In this document: in pieces, positions 1,203 through 1,980 of the stretch
How positions within the stretch are numbered: the stretch's first letter is position 1
How the letters are laid out: every line of letters begins with the position of its first letter
Virus record (IMG/VR): IMGVR_UViG_2534682157_000011
Location: 1 to 8,008 of that record
Source: a virus
Taxonomy: Duplodnaviria > Heunggongvirae > Uroviricota > Caudoviricetes
Direction: 5' to 3' (one strand)
Length of the DNA: 8,008 nt
Translations under genes and position numbers: made by a program
The notes under the pieces: generated by a model
The model's database searches: none
Told to the model about the DNA's origin: nothing
The model's input: the letters and a program-made list of their open reading frames with translations, nothing else

Positions 1203-1250
1203 TTTGTTGCTCCTCATCATATCGACCCTGCAAGGTCGGTTGGTTTCTCC

Positions 1251-1339
1251 ACAAAACAGAGAAGAACACCTGCGGTGGCAGCCGCCCGGATGGATTGGGT
1301 TATGAGCCCGTCGTCCGGTGATGCTCTTCTCTGTTTTGT
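1251..1339. repeat. 15-bp perfect inverted repeat flanking a 59-bp GC-rich insert, in the 5' leader of the 840-1202 gene
   Basis: ACAAAACAGAGAAGA at 1251-1265 and its exact reverse complement TCTTCTCTGTTTTGT at 1325-1339. On the leftward transcript the upstream arm is immediately preceded by CGCTCTTTTTACA (reverse complement of 1337-1349), which resembles boxA (CGCTCTTA / TGCTCTTTAACAA). Confidence 0.8.
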
Positions 1340-1529
1340 AAAAAGAGCGGTACCAGCCGGAAGCAAGTGTACAAACTGGTACTGCCAAAGCAGTGGCTGT
1401 TGTGGTGACCGGTGCTGATCTCCGGCTTGCGGTTATTTCAGACTCTCACGGGCGTTTGATTGCCCCGCCGAACAGCTCTTTTCCGCAATAGCTGCAATGT
1501 CTTTCGCGCATCAGCCTGCGCATTCACCA

Positions 1530-1656
1530 CAACGCTGAGAGCATTGCCGGTGTCCGAATCGAACGGACCTTTTCCCTGCCCAACCCTCCCATCTGAATGG
1601 GACTGTCTGGAATTGAACCAGCACTTATGCCTTGCTCGTCAATGCTCTCATCGTTG
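1530..1656. ncRNA. Candidate structured RNA: ~20-bp imperfect closing stem enclosing three hairpins (cloverleaf-like); strand and function unknown
   Basis: 1537-1546 GAGAGCATTG pairs perfectly with 1640-1649 CAATGCTCTC, extendable to 1530-1550 / 1636-1656 with 2 mismatches and 1 wobble. Enclosed hairpins: GTCCG-AATCGAA-CGGAC (1552-1568), TCCCAT-CTGA-ATGGGA (1587-1602), CTGG-AATTGAA-CCAG (1607-1621). On the minus strand two loops read TTCGATT and TTCAATT, which are T-loop-like. No ORF with an RBS covers it. Confidence 0.3.
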
Positions 1657-1873
1657 CGTCCTGGTCTCTTCCCAGGCGTCAAACCGAATCGCCACGCTGG
1701 TTAGGCGTCTTATCAGCATCCTCATTGACTTGCACATTCCGGCTACCTGGTTTGTTTGCCCGAGCAAGGAGTGGATTGTCCCCTTTAACGTCCCCAGACC
1801 GCTAACGACGCATGTGCCATACGCCGTGTTACAACCAAATTTTGTTAGGACCTTGTTTGTTGGTCTGGAAAGA

Positions 1874-1927
1874 AAGATAAAATGAAATTGCGCATTATGC
1901 AAGTGTTTTGTTGCGAGATGCGCAATA
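1874..1927 (-). promoter_or_regulatory. Candidate leftward early promoter (pL-like) with TGCGCA-type operator palindromes
   Basis: Minus strand: -35 TTGCAT (rc of 1897-1902), 17-nt spacer, -10 TATCTT (rc of 1874-1879). The heptamer TTGCGCA occurs at 1888-1894 (+) and as rc at 1920-1926; TTGCG-N5-CGCAA lies at 1911-1925. The same motif family recurs between cI and cro. Confidence 0.3.
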
Positions 1928-1938
1928 TGATGGGTGAT

Positions 1939-1960
1939 GAAAAGCCACCTTCTGGTGGCT
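1939..1960 (-). terminator. Probable intrinsic terminator of the repressor gene
   Basis: Minus-strand hairpin AGCCACC-AGAA-GGTGGCT (7-bp stem, 4-nt loop) followed by TTTC, about 20 nt downstream of the cI stop codon (1983-1981). Confidence 0.45.
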
Positions 1961-1980
1961 AATTGATGAGGAGGTCGGGG

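Follow-up and report, generated by a model that had tools for sequence, protein, structure and literature searches.

In phage lambda, the stretch ahead of N carries nutL and an RNase III-sensitive hairpin. The C4 antisense RNA of phages P1 and P7 and the stable non-tRNA species of the T4 tRNA cluster have tRNA-like features and are excised by tRNA-processing enzymes. HK022, a lambdoid phage that lacks N, has a structured RNA, put, in its early-operon leader, with putL lying directly after the promoter (PMC9378689). STnc100 and PasD are described, from copies at other loci, as expressed prophage small RNAs, PasD being Hfq-bound (bioRxiv 10.64898/2026.05.13.724894; PMC12370729); the function of STnc100 has not been established (PMC12370729). 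Phage P22, too, has leader small RNAs: P22B is found 5′ of gene 24, and P22E 5′ of gene 13 (PMC13397905). Here, we describe a window of 8,008 nt from a virus of the Caudoviricetes (IMG/VR record IMGVR_UViG_2534682157_000011, positions 1 to 8,008) and find that its leftward leader is a conserved, strongly structured non-coding RNA built of modules supported by covariation (Table 1).

Table 1. Features in and around the leftward leader, in window coordinates.
Feature	Position	Strand	Description
yfdQ	1..776		Next in the early-left operon, after yfdP
yfdP	840..1202	(-)	RefSeq annotation of identical DNA; first gene of the early-left operon; Shine-Dalgarno GAGGAG
yfdP 5′ UTR	1203..1250	(-)	GUGGAGAAA (remnant of a motif B start); small hairpin 1238-1223; read directly
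Hairpin A′	1251..1339	(-)	~25-bp stem, two small hairpins inside; inverted repeat I2; fold -51 kcal/mol
Terminator-like hairpin	1338..1385	(-)	GCAGUACCAG ... CUGGUACCGC, then UCUUUUUAC; local fold -15 kcal/mol
Motif B	1398..1536	(-)	tRNA-like four-way junction; covariance model R1, alignment A1
Hairpin A	1530..1656	(-)	20-bp stem, 1656-1637 with 1549-1530; inverted repeat I3, 90% complementary
Module D	1656..1847	(-)	Conserved structured RNA, four helices; alignment A3
Candidate PL promoter	1874..1902	(-)	-35 TTGCAT 1902-1897, 17-nt spacer, -10 TATCTT 1879-1874; read directly
OL-type operators	1882-1902 and 1911-1931	.	Two inverted repeats TTGCGC-N5-GCAA; repeat families D5, D7, I5
Intrinsic terminator of the repressor transcript	1941..1962	(-)	AGCCACC-AGAA-GGUGGCU then UUUUC; read from sequence
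cI-type repressor	1981..2673	(-)	HTH and Peptidase_S24; Pfam PF00717 1.2e-18, PF01381 1.1e-10

The leader lies in a gap (1203-1980) bordered by the yfdP ATG at 1202 and the repressor stop at 1981, the repressor's own terminator following 19 nt past its stop codon. RefSeq/PGAP leaves this gap blank on an E. coli chromosome of 100% identical sequence. Mechanical ORF calling gives five minus-strand frames (84, 52, 49, 37 and 30 aa) and five plus-strand frames (141, 134, 57, 35 and 32 aa). In homologues that are 70-90% identical, each of these frames is broken by 1-7 frameshifting indels and/or in-frame stops, and the substitutions show no third-position bias. A Pfam search of the gap ORFs and of the extended yfdP frame returned no match, N_peptide included. 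Matches to PHROG were solely to families of unknown function, one of them antisense to yfdP; they were rejected as evidence for genes, since these families are automatically called ORFs over the same DNA. Given the frameshifts and stops in homologues and the empty Pfam result, we reject protein-coding readings of the gap, which has no coding capacity. An earlier note on this DNA had described a gap of ~780 bp with no convincing ORF and no arginine-rich N-like protein. Its coordinates are correct and both statements hold; comparison with homologues and Pfam uncovered no conserved small protein gene.

Upstream of the gap's structured region lies the candidate PL promoter, from which transcription is predicted to start near 1867, giving a leader of ~665 nt. 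It matches consensus at 7/12 positions and was not called by a consensus promoter scan. The operator-like repeats that overlap it are 88% identical to OR repeats (2692-2758), and across repeat families D5, D7 and I5 the match to OR is 76-88%. A promoter at 1874-1902, also proposed in the earlier note, is plausible from its -35/-10 spacing and the overlapping repeats. The structure that the note envisaged for a leader of ~670 nt is borne out as well: the leader strand folds at -250.4 kcal/mol, compared with -217.1 +/- 5.0 for shuffled sequences (z -6.7), and the opposite strand of the gap gives a z of -3.2. Plus-strand GC skew is -0.16 to -0.24 over 1426-1800, making the leader RNA C-poor and G-rich, which is the opposite of a Rho loading site. 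Two checks suggested at the time can now be reported. Rfam, run on the whole window and with lax filters on the gap alone, matched no family in the gap, and alignment with homologous prophages revealed conserved blocks and covariation in module D, motif B, the terminator-like hairpin and hairpin A′.

Motif B occurs once in the window (R1, 90.7 bits, E 1.6e-21). Helix P1 (GUUGUGGUG / CACCACAAC) is accompanied by a D-arm-like hairpin (GCGCA-GGCUGA-UGCGC), a variable arm and a T-arm-like hairpin (GCCGG-AGAUCAGCA-CCGGU), and the loops are complementary to one another (GCUGAU / AUCAGC). Across the 71 sequences of A1, 94.9% of cells are paired, versus 23-54% when the partners are slid, and pairs of helix P1 show 22, 19 and 13 double changes. 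The strand of the RNA is fixed by 39 G-U cells in this alignment and by the neighbouring tRNAs, 13 of 13 of which lie on the same strand. Junction nucleotides are invariant; the peripheral arm varies freely. Both loops are invariant within class I and differ only between class I and class II, so covariation does not prove the loop-loop kiss. One caveat is that the homologue sets were gathered with exact sequence anchors, which overstates the conservation of the anchored segments. Searching the literature by conserved sequence, and for prophage RNAs that resemble tRNA, gave no description of these elements. GOLLD and ROOL, considered for their nesting with tRNAs, were rejected for want of an Rfam match.

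Two further modules precede motif B. Module D is found in 27 loci, invariably 5′ of motif B and on the same strand; in phage P1 it begins at the 3′ end of tRNA-Ile(CAU). It has invariant blocks GGUAGCCGGAAUGUGCAAG, CACCA and GGAAGAG and includes a 5-bp hairpin with a GAAGAGA loop at 1660-1676. In A3 (13 sequences), 96.4% of its cells are paired, versus 30-43% with slid partners, and six pairs have changed on both sides. Hairpin A encloses a variable insert with T-arm-like hairpins, such as GUCCG-UUCGAUU-CGGAC at 1568-1552. An equivalent helix of different sequence lies 5′ of motif B in 72 of 119 loci, as opposed to 9 in shuffled controls, counting duplexes of ≤ -20 kcal/mol. The last 5 nt of the hairpin A 3′ strand are the first 5 nt of helix P1; hence the two helices compete. 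In mEp460 the interior of hairpin A is replaced, and tRNA-Arg(UCU) comes directly behind the same hairpin A in SPN9TCW and phiV10. A resemblance of hairpin A to RNase P RNA (GGUAAGAGC) was set aside; descent from a tRNA D-arm would be the simpler explanation.

On the other side of motif B, the terminator-like hairpin has a stem of 7+3 bp (11 bp in relatives) and a loop of 13-19 nt, followed by UCUUUUU. The consensus terminator scan, whose loop range is 3-8 nt, did not call it. All relatives have it between motif B and yfdP. It is homologous to the part of SfV's STnc100 match that ends in the terminator and, as helix 1 of alignment A4, is 91% paired with both-sided changes in five pairs. Hairpin A′, helix 2 of A4, is 96.9% paired with four such pairs and sits just 5′ of the yfdP ribosome-binding site. 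Within it, CGGGCUCAUAACCC at 1310-1297 is a 14-nt copy of the anticodon stem-loop of initiator tRNA-fMet; that tRNA sequence was confirmed in every one of 5426 E. coli genomes. The small hairpin of the yfdP 5′ UTR also covaries (A4 helix 5). The yfdP Shine-Dalgarno sequence occupies 1215-1210, with the ATG 7 nt downstream.

How does motif B relate to known small RNAs? The Rfam STnc100 model (RF02076) has no match in 1150-2000 at E ≤ 10 with lax filters, nor in the whole window at E ≤ 1. R1, on the other hand, detects STnc100-type elements in phage P1 (37.7 bits), SfV (30.6), sal3 (32.2) and an Stx2a phage (17.4), and these elements score 33-40 bits with Rfam STnc100, for which the threshold of membership is the gathering score of 47 bits. 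The R1 alignments to them have an identical order of helices. Both kinds of element share GGUGAAU after the P1 5′ strand, a short GC hairpin, a variable middle and, in the 3′ half, a CCGG-type hairpin and a CACCAC strand, several with a terminator. Both occur in lambdoid prophages, and in SfV and sal3 an STnc100-type copy takes the slot of motif B, ahead of the same terminator and hairpin A′. The hairpins and loops differ as a set, motif B having GCGCA-GGCUGA-UGCGC with GCCGG-AGAUCAGCA-CCGGC, whereas the STnc100 type has UGCG-GCYNAG-CGCA with CCGGG-AGGCA-CCCGG. Their settings differ also, published STnc100 copies being near Q, stx and lysis genes and the window's motif B after cI. Judged by sequence and helix order, these comparisons show motif B and the STnc100-type elements to form one superfamily, which would make motif B a relative, so far unannotated, of the prophage small RNA STnc100.

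The likeness of motif B to tRNA is one of architecture and position. ARAGORN at default settings found no tRNA or tmRNA in the window, its calls at lowered thresholds were at noise level and equally frequent in coding genes and in the gap, and the Rfam tRNA model (RF00005) has no match in the gap at E ≤ 10. Motif B aligns, however, with the tRNA-Arg(UCU) located behind hairpin A in SPN9TCW and phiV10: the 5′ half of the tRNA, GUGGCAU-UA-GCUC-AGUUGGAUA-GAGC, corresponds to GUGGUGA-AU-GCGC-AGGCUGAU-GCGC. Motif B takes the slot that tRNA-Arg has after hairpin A in epsilon15-like phages. As in tRNA, the helices form a four-way junction: the acceptor-like helix runs on into a T-like stem of 5 bp, a linker of 2-3 nt leads to a D-like arm whose loop contains AGG, and a tertiary contact (predicted in motif B) joins the loops. 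Acceptor, D and T helices in tRNA order and a tRNA-equivalent position are thus both found. Unlike tRNA, motif B lacks the anticodon arm, having a variable region of 33-167 nt instead, as well as the T-loop consensus and the 3′ CCA, and its D/T contact is predicted to be a Watson-Crick kiss of 5-6 bp.

More than 120 viral contigs and 102 bacterial species share an identical 23-nt core of motif B, and the D-like and T-like arms are near-invariant across Alpha-, Beta- and Gammaproteobacteria. Such constancy suggests that the arms may bind a conserved host factor, which our best explanation leaves unnamed. The unit seen here is carried by 586 of 5426 complete E. coli genomes, invariably unannotated. 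The position of motif B is recurrent: it usually follows cI or Q and precedes yfdP, N, holin or lysozyme genes; other copies lie in phage tRNA arrays. In lambda it comes directly after tR′, downstream of Q, as it does after tR′ in two other loci (L039, L021). In Yersinia prophages it lies between a boxB-like hairpin and an N-peptide gene (PF25694), ending 18 nt from the N ribosome-binding site, and in prophage L071 a PL-like promoter ends ~14 nt 5′ of it. The tRNA arrays of virulent T1-like and Ackermannviridae phages contain motif B, as does phage P1; in the arrays, 6-8 nt separate it from true tRNAs. A terminator-like structure occurs within 110 nt downstream of 53 of 174 copies, compared with 16 of 174 control windows.

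Taken together, these results lead us to propose, with a probability of about 0.5, that the gap is an untranslated PL-operon leader of tRNA-derived RNA modules, which yields a phage small RNA and also gates or stabilises early-left expression. Sequence comparison shows the lack of coding capacity, the four structures with their covariation, the kinship to STnc100-type elements and the repeated placement behind cI or Q and beside tRNAs; we infer the promoter, termination at the 1338-1385 hairpin, processing by tRNA enzymes, accumulation of the RNA and any trans-acting role. Once the repressor is inactivated, RNA polymerase would initiate near 1867 and transcribe module D, hairpin A and then motif B, which would fold into a cloverleaf-shaped pseudo-tRNA, its D-like and T-like loops joined by Watson-Crick pairs. 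A fraction of transcripts would stop at the terminator-like hairpin (1385-1340). Cleavage could take place at the tRNA-like 5′ border near 1533, much as RNase P cuts tRNA precursors, in the long hairpins as RNase III-type substrates, or at both. Termination and cleavage would then leave a stable RNA of ~190 nt, of the STnc100/PasD kind, and in readthrough transcripts hairpin A′ would be the 5′ structure of the yfdP-yfdQ message. The consensus scan called no internal promoter inside the leader. PL is presumably silent in the lysogen, so the small RNA would appear only upon induction, barring an internal promoter. That only ~30% of motif B copies have a terminator, together with the 18-nt spacing to N in Yersinia, suggests that the core function of motif B may be cis-acting in the leader rather than small-RNA production.

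The earlier note suggested RNA-level regulation in place of N. A conserved structured RNA is indeed present, with STnc100/PasD-type architecture in motif B plus the terminator-like hairpin, but its role as a stand-in for N is unsupported: nothing in it resembles putL, and motif B is found in company with N and Q. Either by itself or together with adjacent modules, motif B could in principle be a cis-acting, protein-independent antiterminator like put, binding the transcribing RNA polymerase so that it passes the 1385-1340 hairpin and later terminators. The absence of an N-like gene from the window agrees with this idea (Pfam found no N-peptide gene directly downstream of PL there, and PF25694 only in other loci), as do the terminator-like hairpin ahead of yfdP in all relatives, the putL-like position of motif B in L071, its recurrence just 3′ of both lambdoid promoters whose operons need antitermination, and a degree of sequence conservation that fits a conserved host machine as partner. 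We nonetheless consider it unlikely. A blastn-short comparison of the gap with the HK022 PL-nun region gave only chance matches of 10-15 nt, and reading putL itself revealed no similarity; put has ~70 nt and two stems, compared with ~140 nt and a four-way junction. Motif B is found beside an N gene and boxB-like hairpin, beside Q genes, after rather than before tR′ in lambda, L039 and L021, and in phage P1 and tRNA arrays of virulent phages. The window's copy is preceded by other modules and is ~330 nt away from the start. A boxA-like CGCUCUUUUUACAA (1349-1336), in the region of the terminator-like hairpin, and the GAAGAGA-loop hairpin (1676-1660) are present, in an order and at a spacing unlike those of nut sites. 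The lambda N-leader is likewise long and structured, reaching from PL to the first gene, and has a long, almost perfect hairpin directly 5′ of the ribosome-binding site; it differs in that the window lacks N, and its GAAGAGA-loop hairpin is only loosely boxB-like. We think it quite improbable that motif B works as a sensor domain, be it an aptamer of riboswitch type or a place where some conserved host protein or RNA binds, in which the hairpin A/P1 switch sets termination or translation of the first gene. The junction, loop-loop contact, invariant junction nucleotides, freely variable arm, competition for 5 nt and location immediately 5′ of ribosome-binding sites or terminators would all suit a sensor. 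No ligand or partner is indicated, though, copies between tRNA genes have no evident expression platform, and a tRNA-derived origin accounts for the same architecture.

A more deflationary reading is that the gap is a decayed phage tRNA cluster brought in by recombination, with hairpins that are functionless relics filling the leader. Such a history would explain the tRNA-like fragments throughout (T-arm-like hairpins, the 14-nt tRNA-fMet anticodon arm), the lack of an intact tRNA, the patchwise mosaic similarity to tRNA-flanking DNA of unrelated phages and the replaced hairpin A interior in mEp460. It is hard to reconcile with compensatory changes that keep all main helices, with a 23-nt core shared by so many species of several proteobacterial classes and viral contigs, with a fixed order and strand of modules, and with a non-random genomic position, and we regard it as improbable. 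The chance that the gap encodes a small protein seems to us very slight. One candidate would be a 29-aa Arg-containing peptide within the 84-aa frame, read from the ATG near 1735; another would be YfdP extended N-terminally so as to start at 1388. The 186 nt upstream of yfdP do stay open in frame, close relatives change mainly third positions there ([1,1,6] in SfV), and some phage records have ORFs annotated in this region. The extension is broken by frameshifts or stops in L024 and L064, however, and the 84-aa frame in P1, phiV10, L017, L024 and others; Pfam matches neither, the stretch is a near-perfect 25-bp hairpin, and RefSeq starts yfdP at 1202.

Beyond our preferred reading of a tRNA-derived leader, we tentatively raise a broader one, which we think possible but doubtful. 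Motif B, with STnc100/PasD as a branch, would be an unrecognised, Proteobacteria-wide class of tRNA-derived cloverleaf with a Watson-Crick kiss for the D/T contact and a free cassette for the anticodon arm, placed by phages, lambda included, in PL and PR′ leaders and tRNA arrays, where it would engage some conserved host machine. That machine could be tRNA-processing or tRNA-targeting enzymes, the ribosome or RNA polymerase, and the RNA might serve to decoy tRNA-directed defences or to regulate early and late expression. If the preferred reading is right, what was taken for an intergenic gap is a conserved RNA device common to thousands of prophages and found also in Stx-converting phages, P1 and lambda. 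The poorly understood STnc100 and PasD would thereby be linked with both a tRNA-like fold and the two antiterminated lambdoid operons, in their leaders. It would offer an entry point to the control of early-left transcription in N-less lambdoid phages and to the role of abundant prophage RNAs. Motif B, module D and hairpin A would be three new RNA models for use in annotation pipelines.

Finally, P22B and P22E were rejected as homologues, R1 having no match in P22, and serve as an analogy. C4 RNA and the stable T4 species are unrelated to motif B in sequence and structure; the likeness is that of tRNA-like phage RNAs, and processing of motif B is predicted. Copies of C4 and isrK are found by Rfam elsewhere in the same window.

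This 8-kb window constitutes the immunity region of a lambdoid prophage of the SfV/mEp460 type. Positions 1150–2050 share 99.7–99.9% identity with phage 1720a-02 and two Stx2a-converting phages, Stx2a_1447 and WGPS2, and several E. coli chromosomes carry the same stretch at 100% identity. RefSeq lists no feature between yfdP and the repressor gene, and the 206-nt core unit of this gap carries no annotation in any listed E. coli genome. Each ORF of the gap has frameshifting indels and/or in-frame stops in relatives at 70–90% identity, and none has a Pfam match, so a protein-coding reading is rejected. 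Substitutions are spread evenly over codon positions (e.g., 13, 11, 4 and 15, 11, 5 for an 84-aa frame), and PHROG matches are to families of unknown function that derive from ORFs called on this same DNA. A 134-aa ORF at 1014–1418 (+), antisense to yfdP and to hairpin A′ of its leader, matches PHROG 3651 (2.4e-84), which appears to be a family built of spurious antisense ORF calls. The earlier note described the gap as lacking a convincing ORF and proposed a structured leftward leader, and on both points our results agree: the folding energy of the leftward RNA is −250.4 kcal/mol, versus −217.1 ± 5.0 for shuffles (z = −6.7); for the opposite strand, z = −3.2.

Features of the window and related copies in phages lambda and P1
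Feature	Coordinates	Strand	Remarks
yfdQ	1..776	-	
yfdP	840..1202	-	
Gap	1203-1980		
tRNA-fMet anticodon-arm copy CGGGCUCAUAACCC	1297-1310	-	three G-C pairs + CAU
Motif B	1536->1398	-	match to R1 (covariance model built from motif B), 90.7 bits; single copy in window
Hairpin A	1656->1530	-	20-bp stem
Module D	1847->1656	-	invariant single-stranded blocks + four helices
Candidate PL (-35/-10 pair)	1902-1874		readable directly in sequence
Repressor-transcript terminator	1962-1941		readable directly in sequence
Two operator repeats resembling those at OR			readable directly in sequence
cI-type repressor	1981..2673	-	HTH + Peptidase_S24 domains (Pfam)
OR operators, cro-like gene, CII-like ymfL gene, three Rha genes	right of repressor		
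isrK/C4 pairs (within 3918-5826)	3931-4007/4032-4119, 4791-4867/4892-4979, 5639-5715/5739-5826		
Lambda hairpin A/motif-B stretch	L132 989-1143		lambda ~44788-44942
Phage P1 copies	L004 2493-2881 and 1501-1685		P1 69814-70202 and 71010-71194

Alignment with homologous prophages, as that note had advised, reveals conserved blocks with covariation, motif B among them. The motif-B 23-mer GGTGAATGCGCAGGCTGATGCGC occurs in >120 IMG/VR contigs and in 102 species-representative genomes (Enterobacterales, many Betaproteobacteria, other Gammaproteobacteria and some Alphaproteobacteria). Defined from 71 diverse copies, its parts are, 5′ to 3′, the 5′ strand of closing helix P1; the hairpin GCGCA-GGCUGA-UGCGC; a variable region of 33–167 nt; the hairpin GCCGG-AGAUCAGCA-CCGGC; and the 3′ strand of helix P1. 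Paired cells make up 94.9% of the alignment, versus 23–54% with partners slid. The homologue sets of this analysis were collected by exact-word anchors, which inflate conservation of the anchored segments; in motif B, the search word itself predetermined both hairpins. In helix P1, three pairs show 22, 19 and 13 double changes, and each has a single unpaired cell. Covariation scores 0.165, versus 0.071 in shuffles, a value reached by 0/500 of these shuffles, which, like the other shuffle controls, ignore phylogeny. Compensated hairpin changes (GCACA/UGUGC, GCGUA/UACGC, GUCGG/CCGAC) are seen in the copies of phage P1 and one further locus (L044). The two loops, GCUGAU and AUCAGC, complement each other and never vary except to G-U, so a loop-loop kiss is consistent with the data but unproven. 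Together, 39 G-U cells and the orientation of neighboring tRNAs (13/13 within 1 kb on the same strand) place the RNA on the minus strand of the window. The motif-B unit also has 241 matches on ~90 kb plasmids of E. coli genomes (H122–H124), presumably P1-like phage-plasmids.

The Rfam search proposed in the earlier note matched no family to any part of the gap; kinship with STnc100 emerged instead through R1. At 17–38 bits, this model detects sub-threshold Rfam STnc100 elements of phage P1, SfV and Salmonella phage sal3, as well as a copy that Stx2a_1447 carries downstream of stx2B. In SfV and sal3, the STnc100-type element occupies the exact site of the window's motif B, and the terminator-like hairpin and hairpin A′ come after it as they do in the window. 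When copies are sampled with the neutral anchor GTTGTGGTGAATGC, two classes appear in which both hairpins differ jointly; judged by this joint change, motif B is a sister class of STnc100. STnc100 has been linked to PasD, an abundant Hfq-associated prophage sRNA (2026 preprint, 10.64898/2026.05.13.724894), and its detection by RT-qPCR has been reported, with function not established (PMC12370729). In phage P1, motif-B and STnc100-type copies lie upstream of tciA and antisense to the annotated plp and upl CDSs, annotations that may deserve a second look; a module D copy is located between trnI and ban in the same phage.

A helix equivalent to hairpin A, quite different in sequence, lies 5′ of motif B in 72/119 loci, versus 9 in shuffled controls. 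The last five bases of hairpin A are the first five of helix P1, so the two helices compete or stack. The junction GUUGU(G) (1530–1536) can pair with the 5′ strand of hairpin A (1652–1656) or the 3′ strand of helix P1 (1399–1408), and all three strands covary across loci (e.g., CACAGG/CCUGUG/CACAGG in L075), which points to helices that alternate or stack. Inside hairpin A (1544–1640) lie 97 nt with two T-arm-like hairpins; in mEp460 (L002 3395–3434) and phiSTEC1575-Stx2k an unrelated 40-nt insert replaces this interior and the stem is retained. The interior looks like a cassette between inverted repeats. In 27 loci, module D without exception precedes motif B and has the same orientation; its helices show 96.4% pairing, and six of their pairs are doubly changed. 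For the terminator-like hairpin, hairpin A′ and a small yfdP 5′-UTR hairpin, pairing is 93.5% versus 43–52% when slid, with 16 doubly changed pairs. Hairpin A′ contains CGGGCUCAUAACCC, a 14-nt exact copy of the E. coli initiator tRNA-fMet anticodon stem-loop, ~95 nt upstream of the yfdP start and invariant in 17/17 aligned relatives; the tRNA sequence used for comparison was confirmed in 5426/5426 genomes.

ARAGORN finds no tRNA in the gap. Patches of the gap are conserved in unrelated phages, where they adjoin tRNA genes. Positions 1840–1663 have a 78% match in phage P1, directly after tRNA-Ile(CAU) and before ban, and also match epsilon15-like phages upstream of tRNA-Arg(UCU); positions 1546–1398 have a 96% match in T1-like phage IME207, upstream of tRNA-Ser and tRNA-Arg; and a 31-nt piece is identical in Ackermannviridae. 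Within tRNA arrays, motif B lies 6–8 nt from true tRNAs. In SPN9TCW and phiV10, hairpin A is followed by tRNA-Arg(UCU) in motif B's place, and the first 26 nt of this tRNA, GUGGCAU-UA-GCUC-AGUUGGAUA-GAGC, align with GUGGUGA-AU-GCGC-AGGCUGAU-GCGC of motif B. Motif B shares with tRNA a cloverleaf topology, an acceptor-like helix running straight into a 5-bp T-like stem, and a D-like arm and loop-loop contact, but carries a variable arm where tRNA has the anticodon arm.

Across 226 occurrences, motif B lies in ORF-free gaps (median length 530 nt), with flanking genes mostly on the same strand. Upstream, S24 cI-type repressors (24 loci) and Q antiterminators (PF03589 in 13 loci, PF06530 in 5) recur; downstream, YfdP (11), holins (13), lysozyme (4), RdgC (5) and N-peptide genes (4–5). 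In Yersinia prophages (L193, L166, L078), a promoter, a boxB-like hairpin GCGCUGAAAAGUGC, motif B and an N-peptide gene (PF25694) follow one another, motif B ending 18 nt before the N ribosome-binding site; in lambda, the RNase III-sensitive N-leader hairpin occupies this place. Prophage L071 has the window's yfdP operon with a different immunity region, and its PL-like promoter ends ~14 nt before motif B. In lambda's late leader, an unannotated stretch without an Rfam family match begins 8 nt past the tR′ U-run and holds, besides a degenerate motif B, the consensus of hairpin A (CACAACAGGUAAGAGCAUUG ... CAGUGCUCUUUCCGUUGUG). Terminator-like structures follow 53/174 distinct motif-B copies, versus 16/174 control windows.

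The best-supported reading is that the gap specifies a PL-transcribed, tRNA-derived leader. In this reading, use of the promoter, termination, processing and a role in trans, if any, are inferred. Transcription from PL would pass through the leader and partially terminate at 1385–1340; cleavage, probably by tRNA-type or double-strand-specific RNases, would together with termination yield a stable STnc100-like RNA of ~190 nt, and read-through transcripts would bear hairpin A′ upstream of yfdP. Rich in G and poor in C, the leader RNA is a poor Rho substrate. Were the gap simply a tRNA cluster in decay, its helices would not be expected to covary or to be conserved across bacterial classes, and that explanation is contradicted. 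The earlier note suggested RNA-level regulation in place of an N protein, by protein-independent antitermination or an sRNA. Antitermination would fit the terminator-like hairpin ahead of yfdP and the absence of an N gene, but is weakened because the leader has no similarity to putL, and because motif B coexists with N and Q elsewhere and occurs in tRNA arrays of virulent phages.

To the right of the repressor, three tandem Rha-family antirepressor-type genes occupy 3718–6429. Each has a pair of isrK (60–62 bits) and C4 antisense RNA (82–84 bits) on its 5′ side, and weak c4-a1b1 target matches are also found ahead of each. The near-identical phage Stx2a_1447 has one antirepressor gene where the window has three.
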